From Gemmatimonadales bacterium (GTDB lineage Bacteria; Gemmatimonadota; Gemmatimonadetes; Gemmatimonadales; GWC2-71-9), in NCBI GenBank assembly GCA_041390145.1, contig JAWKQM010000003.1, positions 24,148 through 88,147 on the forward strand: a stretch of DNA of 64,000 bases, written 5' to 3'. Within the stretch, counting starts at the first letter, position 1. Each line of letters opens with the position of its first letter. Below the pieces are notes generated by a model. The model was not told the DNA's origin and did not search any database. It saw nothing but the letters and a program-made list of their open reading frames with translations. This document shows positions 9,069 through 52,381 of this stretch, one piece after another. The position numbers were made by a program, and so were the translations under genes.

Positions 9069-12000
9069 TCAGGGGGCGCGTACTGGCCGCTCGCCGAGTA
9101 TGCGGTCCAGCGTCGACAGGAGATGGTCGATGTCATCGGCGTCCACAGTGAGCGGTGGGCGGATCTTCAGTACGTTGTCGTCCGGTCCCTCCGTCCCGAT
9201 CAGGATCCGTTCCTGGCGCAGCCGGTTCTTGACGTAGTGGGCCACCCGCGTCGCCGGCGCCCGGGTGGCGCGATCGGTCACGAGATCGACGCCCACGAAG
9301 AGCCCGAGTCCCCGCACGTCACCGATGACTTCATGCCGAGCGTGGAGCGCCCGCAGCCCGTCGAGGAGGTGGGTGCCGGTCGCTGCCGCGTTGGCCTGCA
9401 GGCGGTCCTCCACCACGAGCCGCAGCACCTCGGTGCCGATGCGGCAGGACAGCGTGCTCCCGCCGAACGTCGAGAAGAACTCGATCCCGTTGCCGAAGGA
9501 GCGTGCAATCGCCGCGGTCGTGATCACCGCTCCGATCGGATGCCCGTTCCCCAGCGGCTTGCCGAGCACCACGATGTCAGGATCGGCCTGCTGCTGCTCG
9601 AACCCCCAGTAGTACGCGCCCAGCCGCCCGAGCCCGGTCTGGACCTCGTCGGCGATGCAGACCCCTCCCGCCGCCCGGATGCGCTCGTAGACGGCGGGTA
9701 GATACCCTGTCGGCGGGATGATCTGCCCCGCGACGCTCGGGAAGGTCTCCGCGATGAACCCAGCCAGGCGGCCGCCGCGGGCCTTCACCCGCTCGAGCGC
9801 GCCATCGACGGTACGCGCATAGCGCACGGCCGCATTGTCCCCGCGGTGCTCCCCGCGATAGGTGTCAGGCACCGGCACGACATGGACCCAGTCTGGTGCT
9901 CCTCCCCCTCCTGGCTTGTTGAACTTGTACGCCGAGATGTCGATGGCCCCGGTGGTGTTGCCGTGGTAGCCGTGGTCCACGACCACCATGTCCTTGCCTC
10001 CGGTGTGGGCGCGCGCCAGGCGGAGAGCCAGCTCGTTGGCCTCGCTCCCTGAATTGACCAGGAAGACGTGAGTCATCTGTGCGGGCATCTTGGCCAGCAG
10101 CGCCTTGCGAACTCGATCTGGGCGGGATGGAGGTAGCGGGTGTTCGTGTTCAGCCGTCCCATCTGGTCACACGCGACCGCGGCGAGCCGCGGATGCGCAT
10201 GCCCCACGTGTGGCACGTTGTTGTAGGCGTCCAGGTGCGGGCGGCCCCACTGGTCGTACAGGTGCGTGCGCCAGCCGCGAACGAAAAGGCACGGTTCGTC
10301 GTAGCTGAGCCGGAGGTTCGACGCGAAGCGATCGCGCCGCTTGCCCGTGATCCCCGCAGTGTCGAGGGGCCGATACGCGACACGATCGTCCGGAAGGTTC
10401 AGGAGCGGGGCGGGGTTGGGAGAAATCGCACGCCAGAGGGCCAAGTCGTCGGGGTCGGCAACGCCGGGCCAGTTGGCCGGCATCGCCTCGGGCGCCGCCA
10501 CCAGCTGGAAATGGAGGTGGGGCTGCCAGCCGCCGTTCTCCCCGGGCTCTCCAAGGTTGGCGAACACCTCTCCCCTCGCCACACGCTGGCCAGGCTTCAG
10601 CGCATCAACCATCGCCGAGGAGAGGTGGCCGTACAGCGTCGCGAAATCGTCGCCCGCCGGGGTCGTATGACGCAGGACGACCATGCCGCCGTAGTCCAGG
10701 TGCCCCTCCCGATACGCCACGACAGCTACGACCGCGTCACAGGGTGCGTGCACCTGCGTGCCGGCCTCCATGAAGAGGTCCACGCCAAGGTGCACGGTGC
10801 GTCGAGGGGCGCCACGGTAGGGTCCCGCGCGAAAGGCGGCGTCGGTGTAGATGCCGCGCGGCTCGCCGTAGCGACCAATCCATGCGGCCGTGCCGTGGAC
10901 GTCCGGCCCGAGCGCCCGCGCCTCGGCATCGCGCATCTGGTCGAGATCCCGCGGCATCGCCGATTCGGCGAAGGCCAGGGAAACGACGGGGGCGGAAGGC
11001 AGGTCGGCGGGTACAACCGGGGCAAAGGAGCCGCGTGAGGAGTCGAGCCACGCAAGCACGCGGCCCGCCGCGTCCGTCGCCGGCAGTCCGCAGGCTGCCC
11101 GCAGGTGAGCCGCCATGCGCGCTTCCGAAAAGTCCTGCGCCCGCTCGAGGAATCGCCAGGCGGGTGCCTCGGAGACGACGACATACGAGTCACCCGGCCG
11201 CTCCTTTGCCACCATTGCCGAGTTGACGACGCTCACCGCCAGGCGCGTCAGCAGTAGCGGCCAGATCAGCTCGAGCTGCGCGCCCGACAGCGGTGTCTCG
11301 GCGTGGTAGCCGGCCACCAGTGCGGCGATCGCACGCTCCGGATGCGGATGATCGAGCGCCACGTAGGCAGCCGCGATGGCAATTTCCGCGACGATCGGCC
11401 CGAGGATGAGATCGCCGAGATCGAGGATGCCGGTGACGCGTGGGGTGCCGTCCTCCTCCGGCGCGACGAGGACGTTGTAGTCGTTCACGTCGTTGTGAAT
11501 CGGTGCCAGTGGTTGCCCGCTGAGCGCGGACAGGAGCTTGGCGTGGCGCGCCAGCACGCGGCCGAGCAACGCCCGGCGATCAAGGTCCCCAATGCGGTCG
11601 AGATGCGCGGCGATCCATCCGGCGTGTCGCAGGTCCCACTTCATGCCCCGCTGCAGTTGCGGATGCGTGAAGCCCACCAGTGCACGATCCAGGCGGGCCA
11701 CGCAGCCGCCGAGCTCATGGATGAGGGGAAGGGTGTGGGGGAAAGTGGAGGCGTACACCTCCCCGGGCAGGGCGGCGAGGAGCCACAGGAACCGGGGCTG
11801 CCCACGCTCGTCAGGCCGGGCACACCACAGCTCTCCGGAAGGAAGCGGTAGCACTGGCGGGACCGGGACCGTGTCGTCGCGTGTCCGGATCTGGACGTGC
11901 GCGGTGCAGAGCATCTCGACGAACGCGTGGTCCGATGACGACCGCATGACCTTCAGCACGAACTGTCGGCCATCGTGCGCGTCCACCCGGAAGTTCAGGT

Positions 12001-14734: not shown

Positions 14735-16114
14735 CTACTGGCCTTGGGAAGCCTGCTGCCGCTGGAGTTCCGTGACCGCCGCCTCAAGCGCGGCGTCCCG
14801 GTTGGCGAGAAAGTCCTGAACCGTCCGTGGCACCAGGAGCTGAGGCTGTACCCCACGGCCCACCAGGTCGGTGCCGACGTTTGCCGAGGTGGAGACGCGC
14901 CCAAACCCGCCGCCGGGCAGCGCGAAGCCCACCGGGTCACCCGTGGTGCCTCCGGTCGCTTCGCCGATGATCGTTCCTCGTTCCATGGCCCGGAAGGTCT
15001 CGGCGAACACGTCCGTCGCCGAAATCGACCGGGGGCCGGTCAGGAGCACCACCGGCTTCCTGTAGTAGGCACTGGGCTGGCCCGGCGCGGTCTGCTTGTC
15101 GGCCGTGTACCAGGACCCGGCCGTGCCCCAGGCGCGCAGGGTCGGTACATACTGGCGCGACTTCCACTGCGGCAGGGGAATCGCGACCGGGGAGAGATAG
15201 CCGAGGATCGCGTACGCGATCAGCCCGCTCCCGCCATCGTTTTGCCGCACATCGATGATCAGACCATCGCTGGCCAGAACGGCGGGCCACGCGGCGAGCA
15301 GCGGCTCCTCGATGGCCGGGTCCCCGAAGGTATTGATGGCCAGGTAGGCCAGGTTGCCGGGCAGCTGGCGAAACTCCATCGCCGGAAGGGAGGTGACCTT
15401 CGTGTATCCTGAGCGAGTGAGTCGCAGCGTGAACTCGGCTCCCGTGGGCCGCCGGAAGCCGACCGTTACGGGAGTCTCGCGGTCACCGGCAAGCAGCCCG
15501 TAGGTGTACCGCAGGACCTCGGTGTGCTGCGGCGAATTGCTGCTCACGTATGGCGCGCGCTCACGCGCGACGAAGGCGGGGAGCGGCGTCCCGTCGATCG
15601 ACACAATCTCGAGACCGCGCGACACGCCGAGCGAGTCCAGCGACGGGCTCTCCACCGCGGCCACGAACACGCGGTGGTCGATGACCTCGAGGCGAAGCGG
15701 TGGCGCGCCTTGCCGCCTCGTGATGTCCTTGGGCATGAAGACGTCGGTGTGCCCATCGTGGAGGAGGGCGACCATCGACTGGAGGACCCGATAGTACTCA
15801 TAGGTGCTCGTCGTGGCGCGCACCTTCGGGATGTAGTCGATGAAGGTCTTGTCCCAGTCGAGGTCCGGCACCAGCGCGAAGTTCGGGAAGTTGATCTTCA
15901 CCTCCATCCAGAGGCGACTGAGGCCGGCAATCTTCTCGTCTTCCGTGATGTTCTCGGCATAGGGCACACCCCAGGCGGCGTCGCTTCCCCAGATGACGCC
16001 GTCCCGTTCGAGCAGTTCCTGCCGGGAGGGTGTGGGCGATTGTGCGGCGGCAAGCGGGGCAGTGGCGAGGAGGATGGGCATGAGCAACAGGACCGGGAGT
16101 CGGCGGGGCACCAT
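14735..16114 (-). CDS. Secreted S41-family (tail-specific-protease-like) peptidase.
   Basis: Signal 'LLLMPILLATAPLAAAQ'. 'LIIDVRQNDGGSG' and 'VVLLTGPRSISATDVFAETF' match the S41 Ser/Lys dyad region. Confidence 0.75.
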   Translation of the reverse strand: MVPRRLPVLLLMPILLATAPLAAAQSPTPSRQELLERDGVIWGSDAAWGVPYAENITEDEKIAGLSRLWMEVKINFPNFALVPDLDWDKTFIDYIPKVRATTSTYEYYRVLQSMVALLHDGHTDVFMPKDITRRQGAPPLRLEVIDHRVFVAAVESPSLDSLGVSRGLEIVSIDGTPLPAFVARERAPYVSSNSPQHTEVLRYTYGLLAGDRETPVTVGFRRPTGAEFTLRLTRSGYTKVTSLPAMEFRQLPGNLAYLAINTFGDPAIEEPLLAAWPAVLASDGLIIDVRQNDGGSGLIAYAILGYLSPVAIPLPQWKSRQYVPTLRAWGTAGSWYTADKQTAPGQPSAYYRKPVVLLTGPRSISATDVFAETFRAMERGTIIGEATGGTTGDPVGFALPGGGFGRVSTSANVGTDLVGRGVQPQLLVPRTVQDFLANRDAALEAAVTELQRQQASQGQ

Positions 16115-16310
16115 CGTGGCGGGCTCCTCAGGCGGCAGGTTCCAGTGCGGGGACGATGGTATGTCCTACGGACCGGGCGTCGGAAAGTGTCGCCTGGTTT
16201 GCGGCTCGGAAGCGGCCAGCGTACTGTAGATGTCGACTGCGACCAATTGTCACACACCGGCATCCCGACAGAGGTCCATGGCCACTCCAACCCTTCCCCA
16301 GAACCGGAGC

Positions 16311-16775
16311 ATGACACCGATGCTACGTACCCTGTGCTGCCTGATGGTGCTGAACGCCACCGCACTCGCCGCCCAGCAGTCTCCCTTTGCCGGGACATGG
16401 CGGATTTCCTATCCGGTCGGGGCAACGATTGAAAACGGGGTAGCCACCCCGATCCTGGGCTCCGGTACGCTCGCCATCGCCACCGTAGCCGACTCCCTGG
16501 TCGGTGAACTCAACATGGACCCCGATCCCGAATTTCCCCCCCGGCCGGCACAGCGCCTGGCGGCCAAGGCAGCGGCGCCCGAGGCCACGTTCGTGTCGCA
16601 CACGGAGGCTACCCTGAGCATGAACGGATCGGAGAGCAAGGCGACCGTGATCAGCACGTGGAAGCTGACCGTGAAAGGCGATTCGCTGTCCGGGACGGTG
16701 GAGCGGGTGCTGGAAGGGTACGAGGCCGCCAACCAGCCGCCGCACGAGGTGACCGGGGTGCGGCAGAAGAACTGA
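16311..16775 (+). CDS. Secreted hypothetical protein.
   Basis: Trimmed to the ATG at 16311. Signal 'MTPMLRTLCCLMVLNATALAAQQ'. High GC3. No family recognised. Confidence 0.55.
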   Translation: MTPMLRTLCCLMVLNATALAAQQSPFAGTWRISYPVGATIENGVATPILGSGTLAIATVADSLVGELNMDPDPEFPPRPAQRLAAKAAAPEATFVSHTEATLSMNGSESKATVISTWKLTVKGDSLSGTVERVLEGYEAANQPPHEVTGVRQKN

Positions 16776-16789
16776 GGGGGCGGGGCAGC

Positions 16790-17413
16790 CTAGAAGCGAA
16801 ATCCCACGCCGAACCCAATGGTCATCGGATCGATCTTCAGCTCCGCCAGATCGCTGCCGGACGATTGAAAGGTGAGGCGGTCGGTATTCCACCGCAGGTC
16901 AAGATTGAGCAGGACGGCCGGGGCGAGCGCGAACTCGACCCCGGCCTGGACCGCCGGGCCGAGGTACGGGGGAACATCAAGAGTGTCCAGCACCCCGGAC
17001 TTTTCCCAAGCCACGGTGAAGGTCGCGCCGAGCCCCAGATATGGTTGCCAGGCTCCGTGGACTCGGGGCTGATACTGGACGAGCAGACTCATCGGCAACA
17101 ACTCCACCGACCCATACCGCAGGGAAGGCCCGCTCGAGGGCACGGAATCGACTTCGCGGGACTCCGTGCGCAGGGTGAACGCCGCCGCCCAGCGCGCCCC
17201 GATCTGTCGCTGGAGCGCGATCTCCAGGCCGATCCCGCTGTAGCTCTCGAAGCCCGCCGGGGAAGAGCTGTACGAGCCGCCGGCGACAAAGGCCCGGGTA
17301 AACAGCGTCCAGTTCGGGGCTGTGGCCTCCTGGGCCTGTGTCGTTCCGATCACCCCGACAAGGAACAGGGTGAGCGCGAGGGCGGGTCGGTACTGGGTAC
17401 GGAGGAGACGCAT
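16790..17413 (-). CDS. Outer-membrane beta-barrel protein (OmpW-like).
   Basis: Trimmed to the ATG at 17413. Signal '...GVIGTTQAQE'. Alternating beta-strand pattern. C-terminal 'IGFGVGFRF' ends in Phe. Confidence 0.65.
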   Translation of the reverse strand: MRLLRTQYRPALALTLFLVGVIGTTQAQEATAPNWTLFTRAFVAGGSYSSSPAGFESYSGIGLEIALQRQIGARWAAAFTLRTESREVDSVPSSGPSLRYGSVELLPMSLLVQYQPRVHGAWQPYLGLGATFTVAWEKSGVLDTLDVPPYLGPAVQAGVEFALAPAVLLNLDLRWNTDRLTFQSSGSDLAELKIDPMTIGFGVGFRF

Positions 17414-38355: not shown

Positions 38356-39303
38356 CGCCAACGACGTCGTCCATCGCATCTCCACCGAGGGCGCTGATCC
38401 GCTCCTCCTCGGCGGCGTGAACGACGTGAACCTGCTCGAACTCCAGCGGGCCCTCGGGGTGCGCGCCACCCTCCGCGGCGAGACGTTGACGCTGGGTGGA
38501 ACCCTCGAGCAGATCGAACGGGCCACCCCGTCGTCCAGGGGCTCATCGACCTGGCGCGGATGGGCGAGTCGATCGCCCCGGAGGACGTCTATCGGATCGC
38601 CTCGGAGCCGGGCGCCGAGTTGCCGGCCACCAACACCGACGGGCGGATCGTGCTGCCCGGGATGCGCCGGGCCATCGTCGCCAAGACCGGCGGGCAGAAG
38701 GAGTATCTCGCCGCCATTACCGCGCATGACATCGTGGTGGGCATCGGGCCCGCGGGCACCGGCAAGACCTATCTTGCCGTCGCCAAGGCCGTCGAGGCGC
38801 TGGCCCGCAAGCGCGTCAAGCGGATCATTCTCGCCCGTCCCGCGGTTGAGGCCGGTGAATCACTCGGCTTCTTGCCGGGCGACCTGCAGGCCAAGGTCGA
38901 TCCGTATCTCCGTCCCCTCTACGACGCGCTCGAGGACATGATGCCCTCGGAGAAGGTGCAGAAGGCGCTCGAGACCCGCATCATCGAGATCGCGCCGCTT
39001 GCCTACATGCGTGGGCGCACCCTCTCGGACGCCTTCATCATCCTCGACGAGGCGCAGAACGCCACCGGCGCCCAGATGAAGATGTTCCTCACCCGTTTGG
39101 GCGTGAACAGCCGGGTGGTCGTGACCGGCGACAAGACGCAGGTGGACCTCCCCAAGCGCGAGGACTCCGGCCTGATCCAGGTGGAGCGCATCCTCCCCGG
39201 GATCGAGGGGATCTCCTTCTGCTACCTCCAGGACACCGACGTCGTCCGCCACCGGCTGGTGCGCGACATCATCCGCGCCTACGCGGAAGACCAGGTCGGC
39301 TGA
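38345..39303 (+). pseudogene. phoH: PhoH-like ATPase. The frame is broken once at the C-run 38526-38529 (apparent 1-nt loss): either an assembly error or a recent frameshift.
   Basis: The N-terminal part reads from GTG 38345 ('...[30 protein letters not shown]') and continues one frame over ('[21 protein letters not shown]...[13 protein letters not shown]...LDEAQN'). Length is 959 nt (2 mod 3). Confidence 0.8.
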
Positions 39304-39318
39304 TGGGGAAGGGGCAGC

Positions 39319-39744
39319 GTGGCCGCGGCCGCTGACGTGACGGTGCACGGACGGGTGATTCCGGTCCCGGCCGCCGCCGTGCGCAAGGCCGTGCGCACCG
39401 TGTTGGCCGGTGAGCGCCGCCATGCCTCGGTGTCCGTCACGTTTCTCGGGCGCGAAGCGATGCGCCAGATGAACCTCCGCCACAAGGGCCACGATTTTCC
39501 GACCGACGTGATCAGCTTTGCCCTCCCCGATCCGCGCGGCGGGCTGCTCGGCGATCTCTACCTCTGCCGCTGGCAGGCGGAGCGCGAGGCCCGCCGCCGC
39601 GACTTGCCCCTGCGCGAGGAGTTGCTGCGTCTGGTCATCCACGGCACGCTGCACATCCTCGGCTGGGACCACGACGAGGGCGCCGGTCGCGAGGCGTCCG
39701 CGATGTGGGTCAGGCAAGAGCGTTACCTGCGGAAGGTCCTGTGA
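39319..39744 (+). CDS. ybeY: rRNA maturation endoribonuclease YbeY.
   Basis: 'HGTLHILGWDHDEG' metal-binding motif. GTG start. Confidence 0.9.
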   Translation: MAAAADVTVHGRVIPVPAAAVRKAVRTVLAGERRHASVSVTFLGREAMRQMNLRHKGHDFPTDVISFALPDPRGGLLGDLYLCRWQAEREARRRDLPLREELLRLVIHGTLHILGWDHDEGAGREASAMWVRQERYLRKVL

Positions 39745-40919
39745 GCGCCTTCTTCCACGGCATGCTGTCGCCCGCGGCCCTCGTCGGGTTCACGCTCTGG
39801 GCGGCGTGGCTCGCGCTCGCCGCCGAGTCGGAGGGCGACCTCCCCCGCGCCGACGGGGACGTGACGCTGCCGCTCGCCCGTCGTCTCCACATCGCACACC
39901 TCGCCTTGCTGGTCATCGCCGGCGCCGCGGCCGCGACGTCCGTCGTCTGGTGGGCGTGGCCGCCGCTGCGGGGCGGCCTCTACCTCGCGCTGGCCGTGAC
40001 GGTGGTGTGGGTGGTGGGTGACCTCCTCCCGCGGCTCCTCGCGGCCATTGCGCCGGAACTCGCGCGGCTGGTGCGCCCCGGCGCGGCGCGCTCGCTTGCC
40101 ATCTTCCGTCCCCTCTTCTACCTGGTGACCCGTGTCGACCAGCGCGGCATGCGGCAGAGCCTGGCCCCGGCCCGACCCGGCGCGCGCACGCAGCGCGACG
40201 CGGTCATCGGCGTCTTTGCCCTCTCCGACATGACCGTCGCCGAGGTGATGACGCCGCGGATCGACATCGTGAGCGTCGACGTGGGAGACTCCCGCGAAGA
40301 GGTGGTGTCCACGCTCAGCCGGGCCGAGCACGCCCGGCTCCCCGTCTTCGAGGGGCAGCCCGATGCAGTCGCCGGCGTGGTGTACGCCAAGGACATGCTC
40401 GCGCATCTCGACGACGCCGATGACGACCCCCTGCGGTGGACCGCGCTGATCCGTCCCGTGCCGTTCGTGCCCGAGGGCAAGACGCTCGACCGCCAACTGC
40501 GGGACTTCCAGCGCGGGCCGAGTCATCTTGCGGTGGTGGTGGACGAGTTCGGCGGGACGGCGGGCCTGATCACGCTCGAGGACATTCTCGAGCAGGTGGT
40601 CGGCGAGATTCACGACGAGTACGACGTCGACGAGGTCGAGCCGGTGGTGACGGTCGACGCCGACACCTTTCGGGTGCTCGGTGGGGTGGCGCTCACCGAA
40701 CTGGAGGCGCTCTTCCATCAGGACCTCGGCCACGAGGATGTCAGCACCGTCGGCGGCCTCGTCCTGGCCCAGCTGGGTCGGGTTCCCCGCGCCGGCGACG
40801 AAATCCGGGTCGGTGAGGTCGAACTTCGTGTCGAACAGGTGAGCCGCCGCCGTGTCCGGCGCGTGCTGGCCAGGCGGGTCCCGGCCAGCGCCGGCCCGGC
40901 ACCGGAGGAGGCGGCATGA
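39741..40919 (+). CDS. CNNM/CorC/TlyC-family protein (DUF21 TM domain, CBS pair, CorC_HlyC domain).
   Basis: The GTG at 39741 overlaps the ybeY stop (GTGA). 'TVAEVMTPRIDIVSV', 'HLAVVVDEFGGTAGLITLEDILEQVVGEIHDEYD'. Confidence 0.8.
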   Translation: MSAFFHGMLSPAALVGFTLWAAWLALAAESEGDLPRADGDVTLPLARRLHIAHLALLVIAGAAAATSVVWWAWPPLRGGLYLALAVTVVWVVGDLLPRLLAAIAPELARLVRPGAARSLAIFRPLFYLVTRVDQRGMRQSLAPARPGARTQRDAVIGVFALSDMTVAEVMTPRIDIVSVDVGDSREEVVSTLSRAEHARLPVFEGQPDAVAGVVYAKDMLAHLDDADDDPLRWTALIRPVPFVPEGKTLDRQLRDFQRGPSHLAVVVDEFGGTAGLITLEDILEQVVGEIHDEYDVDEVEPVVTVDADTFRVLGGVALTELEALFHQDLGHEDVSTVGGLVLAQLGRVPRAGDEIRVGEVELRVEQVSRRRVRRVLARRVPASAGPAPEEAA

Positions 40920-42112
40920 TCTGGGGAGTCTTTGCCCTCGGCATGGCGCTGACCCTGCTCGGGTCCATGGCGGGGGCGGCCCTCGTCTATGTGAGCCGCG
41001 CCGAGTTGGCGCGTGCCGTCTCCCGGCAGCTGCGCGGCGGTTCGTCGGCGCTCGCGTGGCTCTCGCGCATCGAGTCGATCCTCACCGCTGCCGCCGCCAC
41101 CTCCGCCTTCGGCGTGATTCTCCTCGGCGCCGCCTTTCCCGCCGTCTTTGCCCGGCAGGGCGCCGTGCTCCTCGCACCCCTGATCGCGCTGGTGGCGGTG
41201 CCCTTTGTCCTCTTCAGCGGATACCTGGCCCCGCGGTGGCTCAGCGCCTCGCGCGCCGAGCGCGTCACCAGCATCGCCATGCCGCTCCTCGAGCCCTGGG
41301 CCCGGTTCCTCGGCGTGCTCCTGCCGGCGCGCCGGCCGTCCCGGGCCACGGAGTTCCGCACCCTCTGGCGGGAAGGGGCCGCGGTCGGCCTCCGCGCCGA
41401 CGAAGACCTGAACACCGTCAGCGGCGTGATGGCGTTTGCCAGCCGACCGATTCGCGAGATCATGACGCCGCGGACCGACCTCATCGCCATTCCCGAGGAT
41501 GCGACCCTCGCCGACATCGTGCAGGTGTTCGCGCAGAGCGGCTACAGCCGAATCCCGGTCTACCGCGGGACCCTCGACGAGATCGTGGGCATGCTGCACG
41601 CCTTCGACCTCTTCAAGCTGCGGCCCGGCGATCCGCTCCCGGTGCGCCCCGTTGCCATCGCCGCGCCCGGCCGCGCCGCGGGCGAACTCTTCCTCGACAT
41701 GCAGCGCGAACGGCGCCACCTCGCGGTCGTGATCGACGAGTTCGGCGGCACCCTGGGTCTGGTGTCGCTCGAGGACCTGCTGGAGGAACTGGTCGGGGAG
41801 ATCTACGATGAGCACGACCAGGTGCCGGTCAGCGTGCCGTCCGTGGGTGGTGCCGCATTGGCCGACGTCGACGGGTCCACCCCCATCGTCGACCTGGCGG
41901 CGCAGTTTGATGTCGCCTTGCCGACGTCTGGCGCATCCACCATCGGCGGCCTCCTCGCCGGCCTGGCGGGGCGCATTCCGGCCGCAGGCGAGCGGTTCAT
42001 CATCGGCGGAGTGGAAATCGACGTGGTGACCGCGACCGCCACCCGCGTGGAACGGGTGCTCGTGCGTCCTGGGCCGGTCGCGCTGGTCCCCCTCGCGAGG
42101 GAGCCCTCATGA
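40916..42112 (+). CDS. Second CNNM/CorC-family protein.
   Basis: ATGA overlap with the previous gene. 'IREIMTPRTDLIAI', 'HLAVVIDEFGGTLGLVSLEDLLEELVGEIYDEHD'. Confidence 0.8.
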   Translation: MIWGVFALGMALTLLGSMAGAALVYVSRAELARAVSRQLRGGSSALAWLSRIESILTAAAATSAFGVILLGAAFPAVFARQGAVLLAPLIALVAVPFVLFSGYLAPRWLSASRAERVTSIAMPLLEPWARFLGVLLPARRPSRATEFRTLWREGAAVGLRADEDLNTVSGVMAFASRPIREIMTPRTDLIAIPEDATLADIVQVFAQSGYSRIPVYRGTLDEIVGMLHAFDLFKLRPGDPLPVRPVAIAAPGRAAGELFLDMQRERRHLAVVIDEFGGTLGLVSLEDLLEELVGEIYDEHDQVPVSVPSVGGAALADVDGSTPIVDLAAQFDVALPTSGASTIGGLLAGLAGRIPAAGERFIIGGVEIDVVTATATRVERVLVRPGPVALVPLAREPS

Positions 42113-43449
42113 GCCCGCGGGCCGCGAAGAAGAAGAAAGAGAGCCTGCCCGATCTCCTCCGCGCCGGGCGGATTGACGAATTCGTCAAGCTCGCGCTCGA
42201 CATGGAGCCGGTCGACCTGGCCGATGTCCTCTCCTCGCTCGATGACGACGAGCGGCTGACCGCCGTCCGCGCCCTGCCGCCGGAGGTCTCCGGCGAGGCG
42301 TTGACCGAGATGCCGGAGGACGAGCACGCCGAGGACACGCTCGCCGCGCTCGAACCGGAACAGGCCGCCGACATCGTCGACGAGATGGCGGACGACGACG
42401 CCGCCGACCTCCTGCAGGACCTCGATCCCGAGGAGCAGGAACGCATCCTCTCCGAGGTGGAGGATCGGACCGAAGTGGACCGCCTCCTCGCCTATGACGA
42501 GGAGTCGGCCGGCGGCCTGATGACGTCGCACGTCGTGACCGTGCTCGATTCGGCCACGGCAGGGCAGGCGATCGAGGCGATTCGTCGGCAGGCGGAAGAA
42601 ATGGAGGGGTTCTACCAGGTGTTCGTGGTTGACACCGGGCACCACCTCATCGGCCTCCTCCCGCTCAAGGACCTGGTCACCAGTCCTCCCGACCGGAGCA
42701 TCCGGGAGTTCATGGAGACGGCCGACATCACTGTCACCCCCGACCGCGACCAGGAAGAGGTTGCACGGCTGATGGCGCGCTATAACGTGCCGAGCGTGCC
42801 GGTCGTCGACGCCACCGGGGTCCTGCTCGGACGGGTCACCTTCGACGACGTGATCGATGTGGTCGAAGCGGAGACCACCGAGGACCTCCTGCAGTTCGGT
42901 GGCGTGTCGGCGGACGAAGAACTCAGCGCTCCCTGGACCGACGCGGTCCGGAGCCGGCTGCCCTGGCTCTATGTGAATCTGCTGACGGCGTTCGCGGCCG
43001 CCTCCGTCGTCCTCGTCTTTTCCGATGCCATTCAGGAGCTGAAGTGGCTGGCGGTCTTCATGCCGATCATCGCCGGGATGGGGGGCAACGCCGGCACCCA
43101 GGCGCTGGCGGTGTCGGTCCGCCGGATTGCGCTGGGGCAGGTGCCGGCGGGGGACGAAATTGGCATCGTCGGCAAGGAGATGCTGGTCGGACTGGTCAAC
43201 GGACTTGCCAGCGCCCTCGTGGCCGGCGGCATCGGGTGGATGGCGGCGGGACCGGAGTTCGGGGGTGTCGTGGCGCTTGCCATGGTGGCCAACCTGGGCG
43301 TCGCCGGATTCGCCGGGGCCTTCGTCCCGCTCTTTCTCGAGCGCCTCCGGATCGACCCCGCCATCGCCAGTTCGGTCTTTGTCACCACCTTCACGGACAT
43401 GTGCGGCTTTTTCCTCCTGTTGGGGATGGCCACACACTTCCTGCTCTAG
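42109..43449 (+). CDS. mgtE: Magnesium transporter MgtE.
   Basis: ATGA overlap with the previous gene. MgtE_N acidic domain, CBS pair, and 'IIAGMGGNAGTQALAVSVR' in the membrane domain. Confidence 0.9.
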   Translation: MSPRAAKKKKESLPDLLRAGRIDEFVKLALDMEPVDLADVLSSLDDDERLTAVRALPPEVSGEALTEMPEDEHAEDTLAALEPEQAADIVDEMADDDAADLLQDLDPEEQERILSEVEDRTEVDRLLAYDEESAGGLMTSHVVTVLDSATAGQAIEAIRRQAEEMEGFYQVFVVDTGHHLIGLLPLKDLVTSPPDRSIREFMETADITVTPDRDQEEVARLMARYNVPSVPVVDATGVLLGRVTFDDVIDVVEAETTEDLLQFGGVSADEELSAPWTDAVRSRLPWLYVNLLTAFAAASVVLVFSDAIQELKWLAVFMPIIAGMGGNAGTQALAVSVRRIALGQVPAGDEIGIVGKEMLVGLVNGLASALVAGGIGWMAAGPEFGGVVALAMVANLGVAGFAGAFVPLFLERLRIDPAIASSVFVTTFTDMCGFFLLLGMATHFLL

Positions 43450-43484: not shown

Positions 43485-44525
43485 ATGGATCGTGAAGCCC
43501 TGCTTGCCGGCCTGCGAGAACGCCAACCTGCGGCGCTGGCCCGGGCTATTTCGGTGGTCGAGAACGGGCGCGAAGGGTTTGAACCGCTCCTCAGCGCGCT
43601 GCATCCCCAGCTGGGCCGCGCGCACCGGATCGGGATCACCGGGCCGCCCGGGGCGGGCAAGTCCACGCTCACCGAGCGCCTGGTGGGTGCGTTCCGGGCC
43701 CAGGGACACACCGTTGCGGTGGTGGCGGTCGACCCCACCAGTCCCTTCTCCGGCGGCGCCCTCCTCGGTGACCGGATCCGGATGGAGAGCATCGCCCTCG
43801 ACCCGGGTGTGTTCATCCGGTCGATGGCCACGCGGGGATCCCTGGGCGGCCTCGCCACTTCCACCCGCGAGGTGTGTGACGTCCTCGACGCCGCGGGATT
43901 CGACCGGATCCTGGTGGAAACGGTTGGGGTAGGACAGTCGGAGCTGGCCGTGTCGCGGATGGCGGATACCAGCCTGCTGCTCCTGGTGCCCGAGTCGGGC
44001 GACGGCATCCAGACGCTGAAGTCGGGCGTCATGGAGGTGGCCGACGTCTTCGTGGTGAACAAGGCCGATCGCCCCGGTGCCGACAAGCTGAGGCAGGAAA
44101 TCGAGATCACGCTTGGCATCCGGCGTGGGAACGCCTTCCGCCACGTCCCGGCCCACCACGGATTCAAGGCCCGCGCCAGGGCGGAGGCCGATGCGCATGC
44201 CGCGGAGTCGAGTGAAGCGTGGAAGCACCCGGTCCTCGCGACGATCGCCGCAAAAGGTGAAGGCGTCGAGGAGGTGATGGCGGCGCTGGATGCCCACCGC
44301 GCGTGGCTGGAGGCCTCGGGCACGATGCGCGAACGGCGGCGGCGCCGGTTGGAAGAGCGCACCCGCGAGGTCGTGGACCGCGCGCTGGTGCGCTGGGTCT
44401 GGGACGAGACCGCCGCCGAGCAGGCCATCCGCGACCGGCTGGACGAGCTCGAGTCAGGGCAGGTGAGCCCGTACGAACTGGCGGCAAATATTCTGGACGC
44501 ACTCAAGCAGGGGGCACGGCCATGA
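43485..44525 (+). CDS. meaB: Methylmalonyl-CoA mutase-associated G-protein chaperone (MeaB/ArgK).
   Basis: '[13 protein letters not shown]', 'ETVGVGQSE', 'VVNKADR'. Confidence 0.9.
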
Positions 44526-46225
44526 GCGCAGCGGACACCAACGGCGATCGGGAGCAACTCGCGGCCCAGGCACGGGAACTCGCCGCCCTGCGGTCCGAGG
44601 TCGCCGCGTGGCGGGAGCGGTTCGGCAAGCTCCCCCTCCGGGACGATTCCGACTTCACCTCGGTGTCCGGCCGGGCCGTCGAGCCGGTCTACACGCCGCT
44701 CGACCTCTCGCCGGAGCTCCTCGGCCAGGGGATCCTGCCCGGCCAGTTCCCCTACACCCGCGGTGTCCATCCCAGCGGGTACCGGGGCAAGCTCTGGACG
44801 ATGCGCCAGTTTGCCGGGTTCGGCACCGCCCAGGACACCAACGAGCGCTACAAGTTCCTCCTCTCCCGGGGCCAGACCGGCCTCTCGGTGGCCTTCGACT
44901 TTCCCACCTTGATGGGCTACGACGGCGACCATCCCCGCTCCGAGGGCGAAGTCGGCAAGTGCGGCGTCGCCATTTCCTCGCTCGCCGACATGGAGACCCT
45001 CTTCGACGGGATTCCGCTCGACCAGGTCTCCACCTCGATGACGATCAACGGCCCCGCCGCCATCATCTTCTGCTTCTACGTGGCCGCCGCCGAGAAGCAG
45101 GGCGTGTCCATCGAGAAGCTGCAGGGGACGATCCAGAACGACATCCTCAAGGAGTACATGGCGCAGCACGCCTGGATCTTCCCGGCGGAACCGGCGCTGA
45201 AGGTGATCGTGGACATGTTCGAGTGGGCGGCGGAACACACGCCCAAGTGGAACACGATCTCCATCTCCGGCTACCACATCCGGGAGGCGGGGGCCACGGC
45301 GGTCCAGGAACTGGCGTTTACCCTGGCCAACGGCTTCTGCTACGTGGAGCATGGCGTCGCGCGGGGACTCGACGTCGACAGCTTCGCCCCCCGGCTCTCG
45401 TTCTTCTGGGACGTCCACAACGACTTCTTCGAGGAGATCGCCAAGATGCGGGCCGCCCGGCGGATCTGGGCGCGTCACATGCGCGAGCGGTACAACGCGC
45501 GCGATCCCCGCAGCTGGATCATGCGGTTCCACAGCCAGACGGCCGGCGTGACGCTCGCCGCGCAGCAGCCGCTCATCAACATCGTGCGTGTCGCCTACCA
45601 GGCGATGGCCGCCACCCTCGGTGGCACCCAGTCGCTCCATACCAACGCCTTCGACGAGACGCTGGCGCTCCCGACCGAAGATTCGGTGCGCATCGCGCTC
45701 CGGACCCAGCAAATCCTTGCCTACGAGACCGGCATTCCGAACGTGACCGACCCGCTGGGCGGCAGCTACTACGTCGAGGCACTGACCGATCGGCTGGAAA
45801 GCGAGGCGGAAGCCATCTTTGCGGAAATCGAGGCGCAGGGTGGCGTGGTCAAGGCGATCGAGGCGGGATGGTCGCAGCGGCAGATTGCACGCTCCGCCGC
45901 GCGCTTCCAACACGAGATCGAGCAGCACCAGCGCACCATCGTCGGGGTGAACGAATTTGTGGAAGAGGACGAGACGGCGGTGGAAATTCTGAAGATCGGC
46001 AACGAAGCCGAGGCGTCGCAGCGCGAGCGGCTCGCCCGGCTGCGTGCCACCCGAGACCAGGCGCTGGTGGAGCAGCGCCTGGAGGCGCTCCGCCAGGCGG
46101 CCGCCGAGGACCGAAACGTGATGCCTGCGATGCTTGACTGCGCGCGGGCCTATTGCACTCTCTTTGAAATCCGCCACGTGCTCGAAGGGGTCTTTGGAAC
46201 CTACCGGGAACCGGTGTTCTTCTGA
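44522..46225 (+). CDS. B12-dependent methylmalonyl-CoA-mutase-family catalytic (large) subunit, without a B12-binding domain.
   Basis: ATGA overlap with meaB. '[29 protein letters not shown]', '[13 protein letters not shown]', '[13 protein letters not shown]'. Confidence 0.9.
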
Positions 46226-46253
46226 CCCCTCGGCCGTCGGCCTGGAGGAAGTC

Positions 46254-47426
46254 ATGGCACGTACCACCAAGCCCGCTGCGGGCAGCATCGCGGCGCAACT
46301 CGACCGCCTCAACAACTTCCGTCCCGGGACGCACCGGGTCGTCAGCTGCTACCTGAAGGTCGAACCCCGCGATCGCGCGCGTGGCAAGTACCTCATCAAG
46401 GTGAAGAACCGGGTCCGCGACCTCGAGGCTGCGCTGCCGGAGCTCGGGCTCGAGCGCGCGGCGATGGAGGCCATCAAGGCGGATCTTGCGCGCCTGCTCG
46501 CATTCCTCAAGCAGCCGGGCAATCTCCCCCATTCCCAGGGCCTCGCCATCTTTGCCTGCGGACCGCAAAAACTGTGGGAAGTCGTCCCGTTGCCGTTCGT
46601 CCACCGGTCCCGGCTCGCCGTCGACCGCACGCCGCTCGTCCGCGAACTCGCCGCCGCCGAGGACGAATTCGGGCGCATCCTGACCGCGGTACTCGACCGG
46701 ACCGCCGCCCGATTCTTCCAGGTGACGGCGTTCGGTGCCACGGAGGTGGCCGACATCACCGCCGACGCCACGCGCGGGAGCCGCTTCTCCGGGTCGCAAG
46801 ACGGCCGCCCAGGATGGGGAGAGCACAACTACAACAACCGGCTTCGCACCGAGCGGCAACGGCATCTCGAGGCGGCCGCACTCCAGATCCAGGCGCTCGA
46901 CAAGGCGGATCCGGTGCGCGGTATCGTGCTCGCCGGCATCGGCACGGACGCCGGCGTGCTGCAACCGTACCTGCACCCCTACCTGCTCGACCGCGTGATG
47001 GGGTCGGTCCGGCTCAATGCCAAGAAGGTCACGGCCGCGGAGGTGCTCGAGGCGACGCTGGCGGTGCGGGCCGATTGGGAGCGCACCTCGGAGTTGCTGC
47101 TGATGCACGACCTCGAGGAAGGCCTCGGCACCGGCTGGGCCGTGGACGGAGTGCACGAGACACTGAAGGCACTGGCCCGCGGCCAGGTGCGCACGCTGCT
47201 GGTCGATCCGGACGTCGCCGAACCAGGATTCCGCGGTATCTCGTCGGGCCGCCTGGCGCTGATGGAGGCGGACCTCCGCGGGGAGAAGGACGTGGTCGCC
47301 GTCATCGATGTGATCGACGACGCGATCGAAGAGGCGCTGCGGCAGCGGGTCACCGTCAATGTGGTGTTCGAGCCGGCGGCCAAGCAGGCGATTCACGGGC
47401 TGGCGGCGCTGCTGCGCTTCCGGTAG
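46254..47426 (+). CDS. Archaeo-eukaryotic release factor (eRF1/Pelota) fold protein, bacterial baeRF1-type, with a GSQ loop.
   Basis: ATG at 46254 lies 5 nt after GGAGGA. '[10 protein letters not shown]', 'GLAIFACGP...VPLP'. '[25 protein letters not shown]' compares with eRF1 '[25 protein letters not shown]'. The C-terminal '[12 protein letters not shown]' resembles the eRF1/Pelota 'GGIGAILRY' end. Confidence 0.7.
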
Positions 47427-47458: not shown

Positions 47459-47884
47459 ATGACACGCACGAAGTCGCTCTCCCGGCCGATCCGGGTGCTC
47501 GTGGCCAAGCCCGGCCTCGATGGGCACGACCGGGGGGCCAAGGTCGTCGCCGCCGCCCTGCGTGACGCGGGGATGGAGGTGATCTACACCGGCCTGCACC
47601 AGACGCCGGAGATGATCGCCGCCGCGGCGGTGCAGGAGGATGTCGACGTCGTGGGGTTGTCGATTCTCTCCGGCGCCCACATGACGCTCTTTCCGCGGGT
47701 GCGCCAGATGCTCGACGCCCAGGGCCGGAAGGACGTGCTTCTCACCGGCGGGGGCATCCTGCCGACGGAAGACGTCGAGGCGCTCGAGAAGCTCGGAACG
47801 GGGCGGCTCTTCGGGCCCGGAACCCCCACCTCCGACCTGGTGGAGTACATCCAGGCCTGGGCCGCCGACCACTTGAAGGACTGA
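47459..47884 (+). CDS. B12-binding (small) subunit of the split acyl-CoA mutase.
   Basis: '[20 protein letters not shown]' (DxHxxG), '[11 protein letters not shown]', 'GGGILP'. Confidence 0.9.
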
Positions 47885-47885
47885 C

Positions 47886-49532
47886 GTGAAGCCTTCCCGC
47901 ACGGACCCCCACGCCGGCCGGCTCCGCACCCTGACCGACGAATATCGTGAGTTGGCCCGCCGCCTGGAGCAGGGCGGCGGCGCCAAGCGCGTCGCCAAGA
48001 TGCACGCCAAGGGGCAGCTCTCCCCCCGCGAGCGCGTCGAGCAGCTCCGCGACCCCGGCACACCCTGGGTCGAGATCGGGCTGCTCATCGCCTACGACCA
48101 GTACGACGGCCAGGCACCGGGCGCCGGGGTCATCACCGGCGTCGGCGTCGTCGAGGGGAGGGAGGTCGTGATCGTTTCCAACGACGCGACCGTCAAGGCG
48201 GGATCGTGGTGGCCGGAGACGATCAGGAAGATCCTGCGCGCGCAGGAAGTGGCCATGCGCCAGCGGATCCCGATCATCTACCTGGTGGACAGCGCCGGAG
48301 TGAACCTGCCCTACCAGGGCGGCGTCTTCCCGGGCCAGTACGGCGCGGCCCGGATTTTCTACTACAACTCGATCATGCGTCGCTACCTGCATGTGCCGCA
48401 GGTCAGCGCGGTCATGGGCAGCTGCGTGGCGGGTGGCGCGTACCTCCCGGCGTTGTCCGACGTGATCTTCATGGTCGAGGGCACCAGCTTCATGGGACTC
48501 GGCGGCCCCAATCTCGTGAAGGGCGCGACCGGGCAGACGGTGGATGGCGAGTCGCTTGGCGGGGCGCGTACGCACACCGAAGTGAGCGCCGTCGCCCATT
48601 ATCGCGCCGCGACCGATGTGGAGTGCCTCAAGCGGATTCGCGAATACGTCGGCCGGCTCCCCCGGCTCCCAGGGGTACGGCAGAGCGTGCGCGAGGCGCA
48701 CCCCCCGAAGCGGGACCTGGCCGAACTGTACGACGTGCTCCCGCAGGATCACCGCATGTCGTACGACATGCAGCACCTCCTCGACTGCCTCCTCGACGAC
48801 GGGGCGTTGGACGAGTTCCAGCCCGACGTCGCCAAGGAGATGATCTGCGGGCACGCCCACCTCGAAGGATGGCCGGTGGCGGTCATCGTCAACCGGCGCG
48901 GCCTCGTCAAGGGTGCGGCGGGCACGCGACCCAAGTTCGGTGGCATCGTCTATACCGAGAGCGCCGAGAAGGTGGCCTACTTCATCGAGACGGCCAGCCG
49001 GGAACGAATCCCCCTCCTGTTCATCCAGGATGTGAGCGGCTTCATGGTCGGACCCGAAGCGGAACACTCCGGGATCATCCGGGCGGGCGCGCGGTTCGTC
49101 GAGGCGATGGCCACGGCCGTGGTCCCGAAGATCGTGCTGACGGTGAATCACGCTTCTGGCGCCGGGTACTACGCGATGGCGGGGCAGGGGTTCGATCCCG
49201 ACTTCATCCTCTCCTGGCCCACTGGCCGGATGGCGGTCATGGAGGGGGAGTCGGCGGTCACGGCCGTCCACGGCCCCGATATCGAAAAGGCCCGGCAGGC
49301 GGGCGGCGAGCCGTCCGACGCGGTGCAAGCCTCCATGGACTCGATGCGCGAGGACTATGAGCATCAGCTCGACGCCAAGTTTGCCGCCGCCCGCGGCTAC
49401 GTCGACGCCATCATCACCCCGGAAGAGACGCGCGACCAGCTCGCCTTCCTCCTCCGCACCGTCGCCAATTACGGCGGACCGCATCTCGGTCCCTTTGTCC
49501 TTCCCCCGCTTGATTCGGTGCCCCAGCGCTAA
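47886..49532 (+). CDS. Acyl-CoA carboxylase carboxyltransferase (beta) subunit, MccB/AtuC-like.
   Basis: GTG start. 'VIVSNDATVKAGSWWPETIRKILRAQEVA', 'IYLVDSAGVNLP', 'VMGSCVAGGAYLPALSD'. Confidence 0.85.
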   Translation: MKPSRTDPHAGRLRTLTDEYRELARRLEQGGGAKRVAKMHAKGQLSPRERVEQLRDPGTPWVEIGLLIAYDQYDGQAPGAGVITGVGVVEGREVVIVSNDATVKAGSWWPETIRKILRAQEVAMRQRIPIIYLVDSAGVNLPYQGGVFPGQYGAARIFYYNSIMRRYLHVPQVSAVMGSCVAGGAYLPALSDVIFMVEGTSFMGLGGPNLVKGATGQTVDGESLGGARTHTEVSAVAHYRAATDVECLKRIREYVGRLPRLPGVRQSVREAHPPKRDLAELYDVLPQDHRMSYDMQHLLDCLLDDGALDEFQPDVAKEMICGHAHLEGWPVAVIVNRRGLVKGAAGTRPKFGGIVYTESAEKVAYFIETASRERIPLLFIQDVSGFMVGPEAEHSGIIRAGARFVEAMATAVVPKIVLTVNHASGAGYYAMAGQGFDPDFILSWPTGRMAVMEGESAVTAVHGPDIEKARQAGGEPSDAVQASMDSMREDYEHQLDAKFAAARGYVDAIITPEETRDQLAFLLRTVANYGGPHLGPFVLPPLDSVPQR

Positions 49533-52381
49533 TGCATATTCGTCCAGTCGCACTCCTCGGTGTCTTCGCGCTCGCATGCGCCCCTGCAATCCAGCAGCCC
49601 AAGCCCAACATCGATCCAGGCCGTGCCGAGGCCCCGGTGGTCACGGTGCCGGAACCTGGCACGCCGCCGCCGACGGTGCCGCTCGCTCCGGCAGATGCGG
49701 CCTACGCCAAGGGGTGGATGCCGCTTGCCGCCACGGGCATCCCGGATTTCCTCGCGCTGCATCCCGTATGGGATGGCCGCGGGGTCCTGATCGGCATTCT
49801 CGACAGCGGGATTGACGCCGGTGTCCCCGGTCTGCAGCGGACCCCGAACGGCAGCCCGAAACTGCTCGACCTGCGCGACTTTTCCGGAGAAGGCGCGGTG
49901 ACGCTGTCACCGCTCTCGCCCAAGGGGGACTCGGTCCGCATCGGCGGCATCACGGTCGGCGGGATGAGCCGCGTCCGCGCCCTGAGCGCCGCCGGCCCGT
50001 GGTATGGCGGCATTCTGTACGAACGTCCACTGGGCGACCTCCCTGCCTCGGACCTGAACGGCGACGGCGACAATGCCGACTCGCTGGCGGTCCTGGTGAC
50101 CCAGGCCAGCGACGGCTGGATCGTCATGGTGGACACGGACGGCAACGGTACGTTTGCGGGCGAGCGGCCGGTGCACGACTACCTGCGCGGGCGCGATACC
50201 TTCGGCTGGGCCCAGCCCGGCCAACCCTCGCCGCTTTCGGTGGCGGTCAACATCACCGTGACCGACGGCACGCCCACACTCGACCTCTTCTTCGACACGA
50301 GCGGCCACGGGACGCACGTGGCGGGTATCGCGGCCGGCAACGACATGTACGGCGTCGGCGGGTTCGACGGCGTGGCGCCTGGCGCTCAGCTGCTCGGGCT
50401 CAAGATCGCCAACAACGCCCACGGTGGTGTCACCGTGACAGGCAGCATGCTCTCGGCCATGGACTACGCGATCCGCTTTGCGAAGGCGCGGAAGATGCCG
50501 CTGGTGCTCAACATGAGCTTCGGCGTCGGGAACGAGGCCGAGGGTACCGCCCGGATGGACCGGATCGTGGACTCGGTGCTCGCGGCGAATCCCGATGTGG
50601 TCATGGCCATCAGTGCCGGCAACGAGGGACCGGGGCTGTCCACCGTCGGGTTTCCCGGGTCGGCGAACCTCGTGCTGACCGTGGGCGCCACCTTCCCGCT
50701 TGCATTCCTTGCCGGCGCACCGGAAGACGGCAGCCCCGACCCGGTGGCCTATTTCTCCTCCCGCGGCGGTGAACTCGCGAAGCCGGACATCGTCACGCCC
50801 GGCGTCGCCTTTTCGACGGTGCCCCGATGGAACACCGGCGACGAGCGGAAGGGTGGCACCAGCATGGCGTCGCCCTACGCCGCCGGGTTGCTGGCGCTGC
50901 TCCGTTCGGCTGCGGTTGCCGAGCGGATGACGCCGAACGCACGGCAACTGAAACAGGCGCTGATGGTCACGGCGCGGCCGTTGGTCAACGCCACCTACCT
51001 CGACCAGGGCACCGGCATCCCCAATGTCGGGTCGGCGTGGACGTGGTTGCGCGAAGGCCGCGAGGTTCCGAACGTGGTGAGCTTCGTGCTCGGTGCCACC
51101 CCCGCCGCGTTCGACGAGCCCGGCGGGCACACCGACTCGATGCCGACGTTCTTCGTCGGGGGGACGGCGGACGGGACGCTCACCGCCATCACCCTGCGCA
51201 GTGACAGCCCCTGGCTGGAAACCCCGCCGTCCCTCGGCGAGAGGTACCAGGGGACCACCATCGATGCGGGTGGGGCGGTATCGGGTCGGCTCGTGCGACT
51301 GCGCTACAATTCGAGCAAGCTTGGGACGCCGGGTGCTCATGTCGGGATTGTCACCGGCTGGGGACCCGATACTCTGACCGGCCCGCTCTTCCGTCTCGTC
51401 AACACCGTGGTCGTCCCCGTGCCCTCTGACACCACTCTCGACCGGATTGCCCTGGAAGCCGGATCAACCGAGCGCGCCTTCTTCCCGGTGGACTCCGGCC
51501 GGCCGTTCATGGTACGGATAACGTCCGGTGCGGATAGCCCGACCCTGCTCGGCGCGCTCTTCGCGCCAGGCGGCCGCCCGTCGCTCGACGACAATGTGCT
51601 CCCGGCCGGCGGCGGTGCACCGGCCGAGTTTGTGGTGGATGGGGACGATGCGACCCAGGGACTCTGGGAGGCCGATGCGATCGGGTCACCAGTGGCCCGG
51701 GGAACGACGAGCCTCTCGTTGCAGAGCTCTCCTGTTCGGATCGACCTGGGCCGGAACCCGAAGGGCGTCGACCTCTCGATGGAGAACCTCTCGACGCACG
51801 CCGCCACGCTGCAGGTCGGGGCCGCCCTCATCGGCGGGGAGCGAGGTGCCGTGATCCCGGGGCGGGGAAGCCACGAGGAGTCGATCTCCTTCACCGTGCC
51901 GGCATGGGCGCGCGAGCTCGTGATCGACGCGGTCATGCCGAAGCTCGACTGGCCGCGCTTCACCGACTTTGCCTTCACGCTCTATGACCGCGCCGGGAGA
52001 ATTGTCGCCGAGGAGCCGTTGAACTTCGCCGACGTCAGGTTGCGACTGGAAGTTCCCGACTCGCTTGCCGGAGAGACGCTGACCCTGCGCCTCACCCCGG
52101 CGTTCGCCGACAGTACCGACACGGGGGTCTGGAATCTGAAGGTACGGATCCGGCTTTTTGCCTCGGAGGCCGCTCCGCTCGATGTGGCGAGTGACGAGGA
52201 GCACCGCACGGTCTTTCTCGAGCCGGGTGCCAAGGCGGCCGTTCGGTTCCTGATGGCCACCTCGCCCTGGCCGCTCCCCGATGGGTTCTTCCCGCTGGGG
52301 CAGGGGGTCGTGATGGAGGGTGACACAATTTGGACGCGGACCGGCGGATTGCCGGTCCCGACTGGACCGGTGATGCGATGA
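49532..52381 (+). CDS. Large S8 (subtilase) peptidase, tripeptidyl-peptidase-II-like, with a signal/lipobox.
   Basis: 'VFALAC' lipobox-like. Catalytic triad contexts 'GILDSGID', '[11 protein letters not shown]' and '[11 protein letters not shown]'. 949 aa. Confidence 0.85.

Follow-up and report, generated by a model that had tools for sequence, protein, structure and literature searches.

A probable Balon-like homologue of eRF1 encoded between the genes of a split B12-dependent mutase in Gemmatimonadales

Introduction

Why does a gene for a protein of the translation-termination fold lie between the two subunit genes of a vitamin B12-dependent mutase? The question is raised by an open reading frame (ORF), hereafter the baeRF gene, in DNA from a Gemmatimonadales bacterium (GenBank assembly GCA_041390145.1, contig JAWKQM010000003.1, positions 24,148 to 88,147). 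This stretch of 64,000 nucleotides (nt) is called the window, and positions are given within it. A first-pass annotation assigned the product to the eRF1/Pelota fold and took a Gly-Ser-Gln tripeptide (GSQ) for a retained form of the catalytic GGQ motif of release factors. A role in the maturation of the mutase and a selfish insertion were among its suggestions for the unusual location.

The baeRF ORF product is a bacterial eRF1 homologue with the aeRF1 fold. The reading that we favour, at a probability of roughly 0.6, is that of a Balon-like factor of the ribosomal A site, which silences or protects ribosomes without release of the GGQ type and is expressed from a metabolic and housekeeping gene array through lineage-specific fixation of gene order. 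The binding to the ribosome, the involvement of EF-Tu and the role are what we infer. The family of the protein was already known (PF18854, Burroughs & Aravind 2019), as were its functional class (Balon, 2024) and the idea of a catalytic Gln in family 10. New are a clade in Gemmatimonadales whose tip reads PGWGE[H/R], with Glu in the Gln column, its loss of zinc-ribbon cysteines, and the embedding of the gene between split mutase genes across the order.

Results

The ORF (nt 46254–47426, plus strand) is intact and encodes 390 residues, a three-domain bacterial aeRF1 homologue at the periphery of baeRF family 10 that resembles Balon and Msmeg1130. The Pfam model baeRF_family10 (PF18854) matches residues 127–271, the central RNase-H-fold M domain, with 40.2 bits against a gathering score of 27.1 (E=5e-10). 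All of the listed homologues carry PF18854. The NCBIfam equivalogs for the Balon-type "ribosome hibernation factors" MSMEG_1130, AOC03_06830 and Rv2629 (NF052287/8/9) align over nearly the full length, with scores below threshold.

The structure predicted by AlphaFold2 from an alignment of 60 homologues, at a mean per-residue confidence (pLDDT) of 75.7, displays the three-domain aeRF1 fold with no extra domain. In a Foldseek search of the PDB with this model, the first-ranked chain was the ribosome-bound Balon Msmeg1130 (8v9j_z, E=6e-20, TM score 0.63–0.67). Another top match was 8v9l_z (E about 1e-19), and 8rdw_B and 8v9k_z were matched too. Below Msmeg1130 came aRF1, eRF1, Psychrobacter Balon, Rv2629 and Pelota/Dom34, the E-values ranging overall from 6e-20 to 1e-4. 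A profile of 28 clade members reaching down to 32% identity gave the same best match in the PDB, Msmeg1130 over its full length (8e-18), followed by Rv2629 (3e-10), aRF1 (2e-9), Pelota (5e-9) and the Balon of P. urativorans (2e-7). Searches of the PDB with the single sequence and with a profile of close relatives had given marginal eRF1 matches in inconsistent loop registers, and were superseded by the diverse profile and by profile-profile alignment.

The Pfam, Foldseek and profile matches therefore show that the earlier fold call was correct: the profile hidden Markov model search that it proposed gave baeRF_family10 above the gathering score, and the proposed structural comparison gave the aeRF1 fold with Balon as the best match. 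Among characterised proteins, its nearest relatives are thus hibernation factors and not release factors. The Balon proteins are experimentally established as ribosome hibernation factors (Helena-Bueno et al. 2024, PMC10901736).

The likeness to release factors is that of the fold as a whole (Foldseek E from 3.5e-16 to 1e-4 for aRF1/eRF1 and Pelota/Dom34), of a similar basic helix past the tip loop, and of the C-terminal LAALLRFR, which resembles the GGIGAILRY type of ending. Unlike aRF1 and eRF1, the window protein has neither NIKS nor YxCxxxF nor GGQ; a check of the sequence for the NIKS and GGQ strings found neither. Its score with TIGR03676 is 15.5 bits against 234.7. It also comes from a bacterial host, where RF1 and RF2 terminate translation, and the profile of its clade is nearer to Balon than to aRF1, eRF1 or Pelota. 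The absence of NIKS and GGQ is shared with Balon.

Two sets of relatives were used to examine the tip of the M domain. The close set comprised 60 relatives of 59–94% identity, and the broad set comprised 80 full-length sequences, namely the window protein and 79 representatives of clusters at 50% identity. The first-pass annotation had placed the GSQ codons (G180-S181-Q182) correctly at nt 46791–46799, plus strand, and had considered GSQ the counterpart of GGQ. In the close set residue 182 is Gln in 44 of the 60 relatives, and S, D, R, A or E in the others. In the broad set it is Gln in only 2/80; among the 32 sequences of at least 35% identity it is Arg in 22, and most others have a gap there. 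In the same 60 close relatives G187, G189 and E190 are invariant, with W188 and H191 nearly so. G187 and E190 stay invariant in the 28 sequences down to 32% identity. Column 190 holds Glu in 60 and Gln in 9 of the 80 broad-set sequences, and Glu in all 32 of at least 35% identity. The long helix of the M domain begins at residue 188 in the model, and thus the P-G-W-G-E segment lies at its N-cap; the loop of residues 170–187 has a pLDDT of about 52.

The profile alignments place the tip in the same way. In an hhalign comparison of the clade with core family-10 members bearing GGW[S/A]Q (probability 100%, E=2e-63, 29% identity), A-P-G-W-G-E pairs with Q-G-G-W-S-Q. The GG of these members falls on P186-G187 and the Gln column of family 10 on E190, so the well-conserved Gln that marks the catalytic loop of the family has a Glu in its place here. 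The GGwsq of core family 10 was in turn aligned with GGQSA and GGQSQ of aRF1. When HMMER was used to align the protein to release factors of solved structure, the three alignments differed by a few residues, and only that to 4af1 puts GSQ in the register of GGQ.

Burroughs & Aravind (2019, PMC6514570) described GGxSQ and GxuQ as variants of the catalytic loop in VLRF1-type hydrolases, and singled out family 10 as possibly active on account of its conserved Gln. Together with the hhalign pairing, these variants lead us to describe the window protein as "GxuE", with the scaffold intact and an invariant Glu in the Gln column. The motif P186-G187-W188-G189-E190-H191 (nt 46809–46826, plus strand), which caps the N-terminus of the long helix in the M domain, is the true counterpart of the GG...Q catalytic loop, and GSQ is a variable part of the loop. 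Judged from the alignments, Q182 is a lineage-specific residue, and to read GSQ as a catalytic motif is misleading. The match of an HNY in the window protein with the HNY of eRF1 was likewise rejected as a homologous motif; it is out of register because a 10-residue segment of the window protein aligns with "ARLRxEKRHN" of eRF1.

Could the protein still be an active peptidyl-tRNA hydrolase or ribosome-rescue factor, using not GSQ but the G187-x-G189-E190 tip with Glu for Gln? It is a member of family 10, its tip departs from the GxuQ/GGxSQ scaffold of VLRF1-type hydrolases only by the change of Q to E, and there is tight conservation of both the tip motif and the length of the loop. Release factors are not known to depend strictly on their Gln side chain for the chemistry of hydrolysis. 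However, every clade member has Glu in the Gln column, and the di-glycine is missing. Moreover, Msmeg1130 has Gln in that column, yet it is described as a non-releasing hibernation factor (PMC10901736). We consider an active hydrolase unlikely. The step from a retained Gln to a competent peptidyl-tRNA hydrolase, as the first-pass annotation took it, falls with the lack of conservation of Q182 and the invariant Glu in the homologous catalytic column.

The core PF18854 members are homologous to the window protein over the full length, and they share its order of domains and the conserved helix, rich in Arg and His, that follows the loop. They differ in scoring 73–116 bits with the Pfam model, against 40 for the window protein, whose loop is about 7 residues longer and has P-G for GG and Glu for Gln. 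The zinc-ribbon cysteines are a further difference, with two in the clade or none in the window protein.

These cysteines belong to the C-terminal, Pelota-type domain, where the model shows a two-stranded beta-hairpin insert at about residues 325–341 (nt 47226–47276, plus strand). DSSP assigns strands to residues 325–328 and 334–335 of the model, at a local pLDDT of only 70–85. The region aligns to Msmeg1130 without large gaps, while the alignments to aRF1 and Pelota end at about residue 329. The hairpin may thus be a feature in common with Balon, and may represent a degenerate form of the zinc-ribbon or EF-Tu-side hairpin region. Core family-10 members carry a four-cysteine zinc ribbon (RCxxCG...CPxCG) at the hairpin. 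In 35 of the 60 close relatives Cys328 and Cys341 are present (GFRC...DCRGEG), and the window protein has G328 and L341 (nt 47235–47276). The cysteines look as if they had decayed stepwise from four to two to none. Such a decay of the zinc ribbon was conjectured by Burroughs & Aravind (PMC6514570).

Outside the order, the gene neighbourhoods of five representatives at 41–48% identity were sampled. In one (P0139, locus L089) the order is Usp, baeRF, PLD, Hsp20, HPF/RaiA (Ribosomal_S30AE), CBS and P-type ATPase. A homologue search gave the Gemmatimonadales clade, at about 47% identity, as the nearest database relatives of this protein, which therefore behaves as an outgroup. A second (P0137, L087) lies in an island with Usp, Hsp20, OsmC, CBS proteins and a P-type ATPase. 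The third (P0132, L085/L086) is flanked by AsnC and MarR regulators and has a NiFe-hydrogenase/Hyp cluster downstream; the fourth (P0124, L084) precedes a PAS/GAF histidine kinase and a response regulator; and the fifth (P0130, L083) follows an HHH_8 protein. No mutase adjoins the baeRF gene in any of the five. Contexts with Usp, Hsp20, OsmC and RaiA have been published for Balon and the baeRF families (PMC10901736; PMC6514570), and the relatives in L087 and L089 resemble Balon in this respect. The company of HPF, Usp and Hsp20, and not of RNA-repair or rescue genes, is a further argument against an active hydrolase.

Within the order, species genomes of GTDB were scanned with the close-relative profile. 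The scan confirmed 229 relatives, and the best 80 of the 229 loci were examined by mapping the neighbour proteins of the window onto them with tblastn. All 80 are labelled Gemmatimonadales, Gemmatimonadaceae or Gemmatimonadota save one (L045), from a metagenome-assembled genome labelled "Bacillota bacterium". That contig has the full order of MeaB, mutase, baeRF, B12 subunit, carboxyltransferase and S8 peptidase, with identities as in Gemmatimonadales genomes, and is probably mis-binned or mislabelled.

The gene for the large subunit of the mutase lies directly upstream of the baeRF gene in 67 of the 68 loci with enough upstream sequence, and the B12-subunit gene lies downstream in 70 of the 71 with enough downstream sequence. 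The common order is MeaB, mutase, baeRF, (HAD), B12 subunit and carboxyltransferase. Any downstream B12 match was found in 72 loci. The B12 gene is adjacent in 24 of them (the window and 23 others), and an insert of about 700 nt intervenes in 48 (for example L012–L015 and L017); in L002 the insert (9233–9901) is a gene for a HAD-family hydrolase. Median identity to the window proteins is 59% for baeRF, 81% for the large subunit, 81% for the B12 subunit, 80% for the carboxyltransferase, 71% for MeaB and 49% for the S8 peptidase. The high conservation of order across loci indicates that the arrangement is old and stable within the order. The synteny survey, which the first-pass annotation had called for, thus places the arrangement well beyond the window genome, and in the loci sampled the position of the baeRF gene between the split mutase genes is limited to Gemmatimonadales.

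One locus separates the baeRF gene from the mutase. In L023 (6224–9850), from a Gemmatimonadales metagenome-assembled genome, the order is MgtE, SulP, baeRF, HAD and carboxyltransferase, without MeaB, the large subunit or the B12 subunit, and the baeRF gene is intact and reads GDQ...PGWGEH. A different mutase-like gene of 38% identity is found there on the opposite strand (16110–17156). In the closest long-read assembly (L001, 5186–7972), MeaB and the large subunit are split into short ORFs, with the baeRF and B12 genes intact; the fragmentation could be pseudogenisation or frameshift errors of assembly.

If it were functionally tied to the split mutase, the protein might help to assemble the enzyme or to set its stoichiometry, or it might act on translation so that the two subunits are made together. 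The position between the subunit genes across an order-level radiation speaks for it, as do the short gaps (28 and 32 nt) and the presence of MeaB in the cluster. Yet L023 keeps the gene, with its motif intact, after the loss of MeaB, mutase and B12 subunit. Most loci hold an unrelated HAD gene in the same slot, the relatives of 41–48% identity never adjoin a mutase, and the whole protein consists of the aeRF1/Balon fold, leaving no additional domain. A literature search found no paper linking baeRF or Balon to B12 mutases. We find such a tie improbable. A moonlighting role in B12 mutase maturation, as once suggested for this gene, is weakened by L023 and by the stress and hibernation loci of the closest outside relatives; the linkage to the mutase probably reflects how the genes are ordered and expressed, and not the biochemistry of the enzyme.

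The location might also be accidental, the gene being a recent selfish or horizontally acquired insertion or a decaying pseudogene. Lateral transfer is well known in the baeRF clade (PMC6514570), and the gene does interrupt an otherwise coherent enzyme pair. However, the composition profile gives a guanine-plus-cytosine content of 0.67–0.71 across the gene, the same as in its neighbours. The ORF shows no disruption and many of its residues are invariant in the 60 relatives, it is fixed in essentially all the sampled Gemmatimonadales loci, and neither flanking repeats nor mobile-element genes accompany it. The lack of a compositional anomaly and the fixation across the order largely refute this explanation, and with it the selfish insertion considered earlier.

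In the window the baeRF gene follows the stop of the large-subunit gene (nt 46225) by 28 nt, and the B12-subunit gene starts 32 nt after it, at nt 47459. The coordinates of the ORF, both gaps and the upstream position of MeaB on the same strand agree with the first-pass annotation. Its Shine-Dalgarno sequence GGAGGA is also present (nt 46244–46249); the spacing to the ATG is 4 nt, not 5. Scans for promoter- and terminator-like sites found no excess over shuffled sequences, and none that brackets the baeRF gene. From the spacing, the gene is probably co-transcribed with its neighbours in the array.

The three components of a split B12-dependent mutase operon, large subunit, B12 small subunit and MeaB, stand together here by Pfam and NCBIfam. 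The MeaB G-protein chaperone is encoded at nt 43485–44525, plus strand (Pfam MeaB 2e-92; TIGR00750 3e-100). The large, substrate-binding subunit of an acyl-CoA mutase of the HcmA/IcmA-like split type follows at nt 44519–46225, plus strand (MM_CoA_mutase 2e-227; TIGR00641 7e-230), its likely ATG at nt 44519 overlapping the MeaB stop. The B12-binding small subunit is encoded at nt 47459–47884, plus strand (TIGR00640 1.5e-50, and the translation of the ORF). The closest solved chain to the large subunit is the 2-hydroxyisobutyryl-CoA mutase HcmA (4r3u_A, 1.5e-167), ahead of the methylmalonyl-CoA mutases (MCM). The large subunit has Gln at what we take to be the position of the carboxylate-binding Arg207 of MCM. 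Next in the co-directional array is an acyl-CoA carboxyltransferase (nt 47886–49532, plus strand; Carboxyl_trans 1e-127), kept downstream in 72 related loci. Taken with the neighbouring carboxyltransferase and AtuA genes, these features of the large subunit point to a pathway of branched-chain or terpenoid acyl-CoA, not propionate metabolism.

The array runs in one direction from AspS (AspRS-type, nt 36583) through PhoH (nt 38560), YbeY (nt 39319), two CorC/CBS proteins, MgtE, MeaB, the large subunit, baeRF, the B12 subunit, the carboxyltransferase and an S8 peptidase to AtuA. Directly 5' of MeaB on the same strand (nt 38560–43449), the genes for PhoH (YbeZ-like), the YbeY endoribonuclease, the two CorC/CBS proteins and MgtE overlap or are separated by tiny gaps. 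YbeY is a nuclease of ribosome maturation and quality control. The baeRF gene therefore stands in one long array with a ribosome-related and Mg2+-homeostasis cluster. Between the carboxyltransferase and AtuA, an S8 subtilase of 949 residues (nt 49532–52381) begins exactly at the carboxyltransferase stop. A protease is unusual company for genes of acyl-CoA catabolism, yet 57 related loci retain this one, with an identity of about 49%.

Discussion

The fold, the closest solved relatives, the absence of the release-factor motifs, the ancestral-type stress context of relatives and the independence from the mutase in L023 all support a Balon-like factor. The tRNA-shaped protein of three domains would most likely enter the ribosomal A site, where its N domain would occupy the decoding centre, the tip of the M domain would reach the peptidyl-transferase centre and the C domain would face EF-Tu. 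It would most likely act there as a silencing or hibernation factor of a non-GGQ kind and not as a release factor. Its gene became fixed in Gemmatimonadales between the large- and small-subunit genes of the split HcmA-like mutase.

Several observations weigh against this account. The window protein is only about 19–20% identical to the Balon proteins (Msmeg1130, Rv2629; 8v9j, 8v9k), and its scores with the Balon equivalogs are far under the cut-offs, 48.4 against 480 bits for MSMEG_1130, 47.4 against 330 for AOC03_06830 and 22.5 against 320 for Rv2629. The invariant PGWGE[H/R] tip of the clade is aligned with RAGQM in Msmeg1130. In the N domain a loop of 10 residues with an invariant R41 is aligned where Balon has ..EHPAND.., and its sequence contains no clear HP; nor was the bL27 trap loop of Balon located by sequence. 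Unlike Balon genes, the Gemmatimonadales gene lies in a catabolic and housekeeping array and not in a stress operon, its neighbours in the window being MeaB, mutase, carboxyltransferase and S8 peptidase. The stress neighbourhood with RaiA/HPF, Hsp20, Usp and OsmC occurs only in the L087 and L089 relatives, at 42–43% identity, and the survey within the order covers the best-scoring part of the confirmed relatives.

Two further points on this side concern the tip and the gene order. Both the tip motif and the length of the loop are held far more strictly than in the families of baeRF that Burroughs & Aravind deemed inactive, which hints at a specific chemistry or contact not described for Balon. 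Identity of the protein falls as low as 55%, yet 67/68 and 70/71 loci retain the gene between the two mutase genes, and neutral inertia of gene order may be an incomplete explanation. A bolder reading would be a functionally distinct branch of the baeRF/Balon proteins, in which the invariant G-W-G-E tip would catalyse a particular reaction or make a particular contact in the peptidyl-transferase centre, for instance hydrolysis of peptidyl-tRNA that depends on Glu or capture of the N-terminus of bL27, and in which the embedding between the mutase genes across the order would reflect a real coupling of the silencing or rescue of ribosomes to the induction of a starvation-type acyl-CoA catabolic operon. 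We regard that combination as improbable, and prefer the Balon-like silencing factor with a lineage-specific gene order.

Three corrections to the reading of this locus follow from the analysis. GSQ misleads as a catalytic motif, the conserved feature is PGWGE[H/R] with Glu in the Gln column of the family, and the linkage to the mutase is no evidence of a role in B12 maturation. The Q-to-E switch on a GxuQ-like scaffold bears on the question of which baeRF proteins still hydrolyse peptidyl-tRNA. Gemmatimonadales are common in soils. If the favoured reading is true, a large clade from this uncultured lineage would join the hibernation factors of the Balon type, and such factors could be hard-wired into metabolic operons and not only into classic stress operons.

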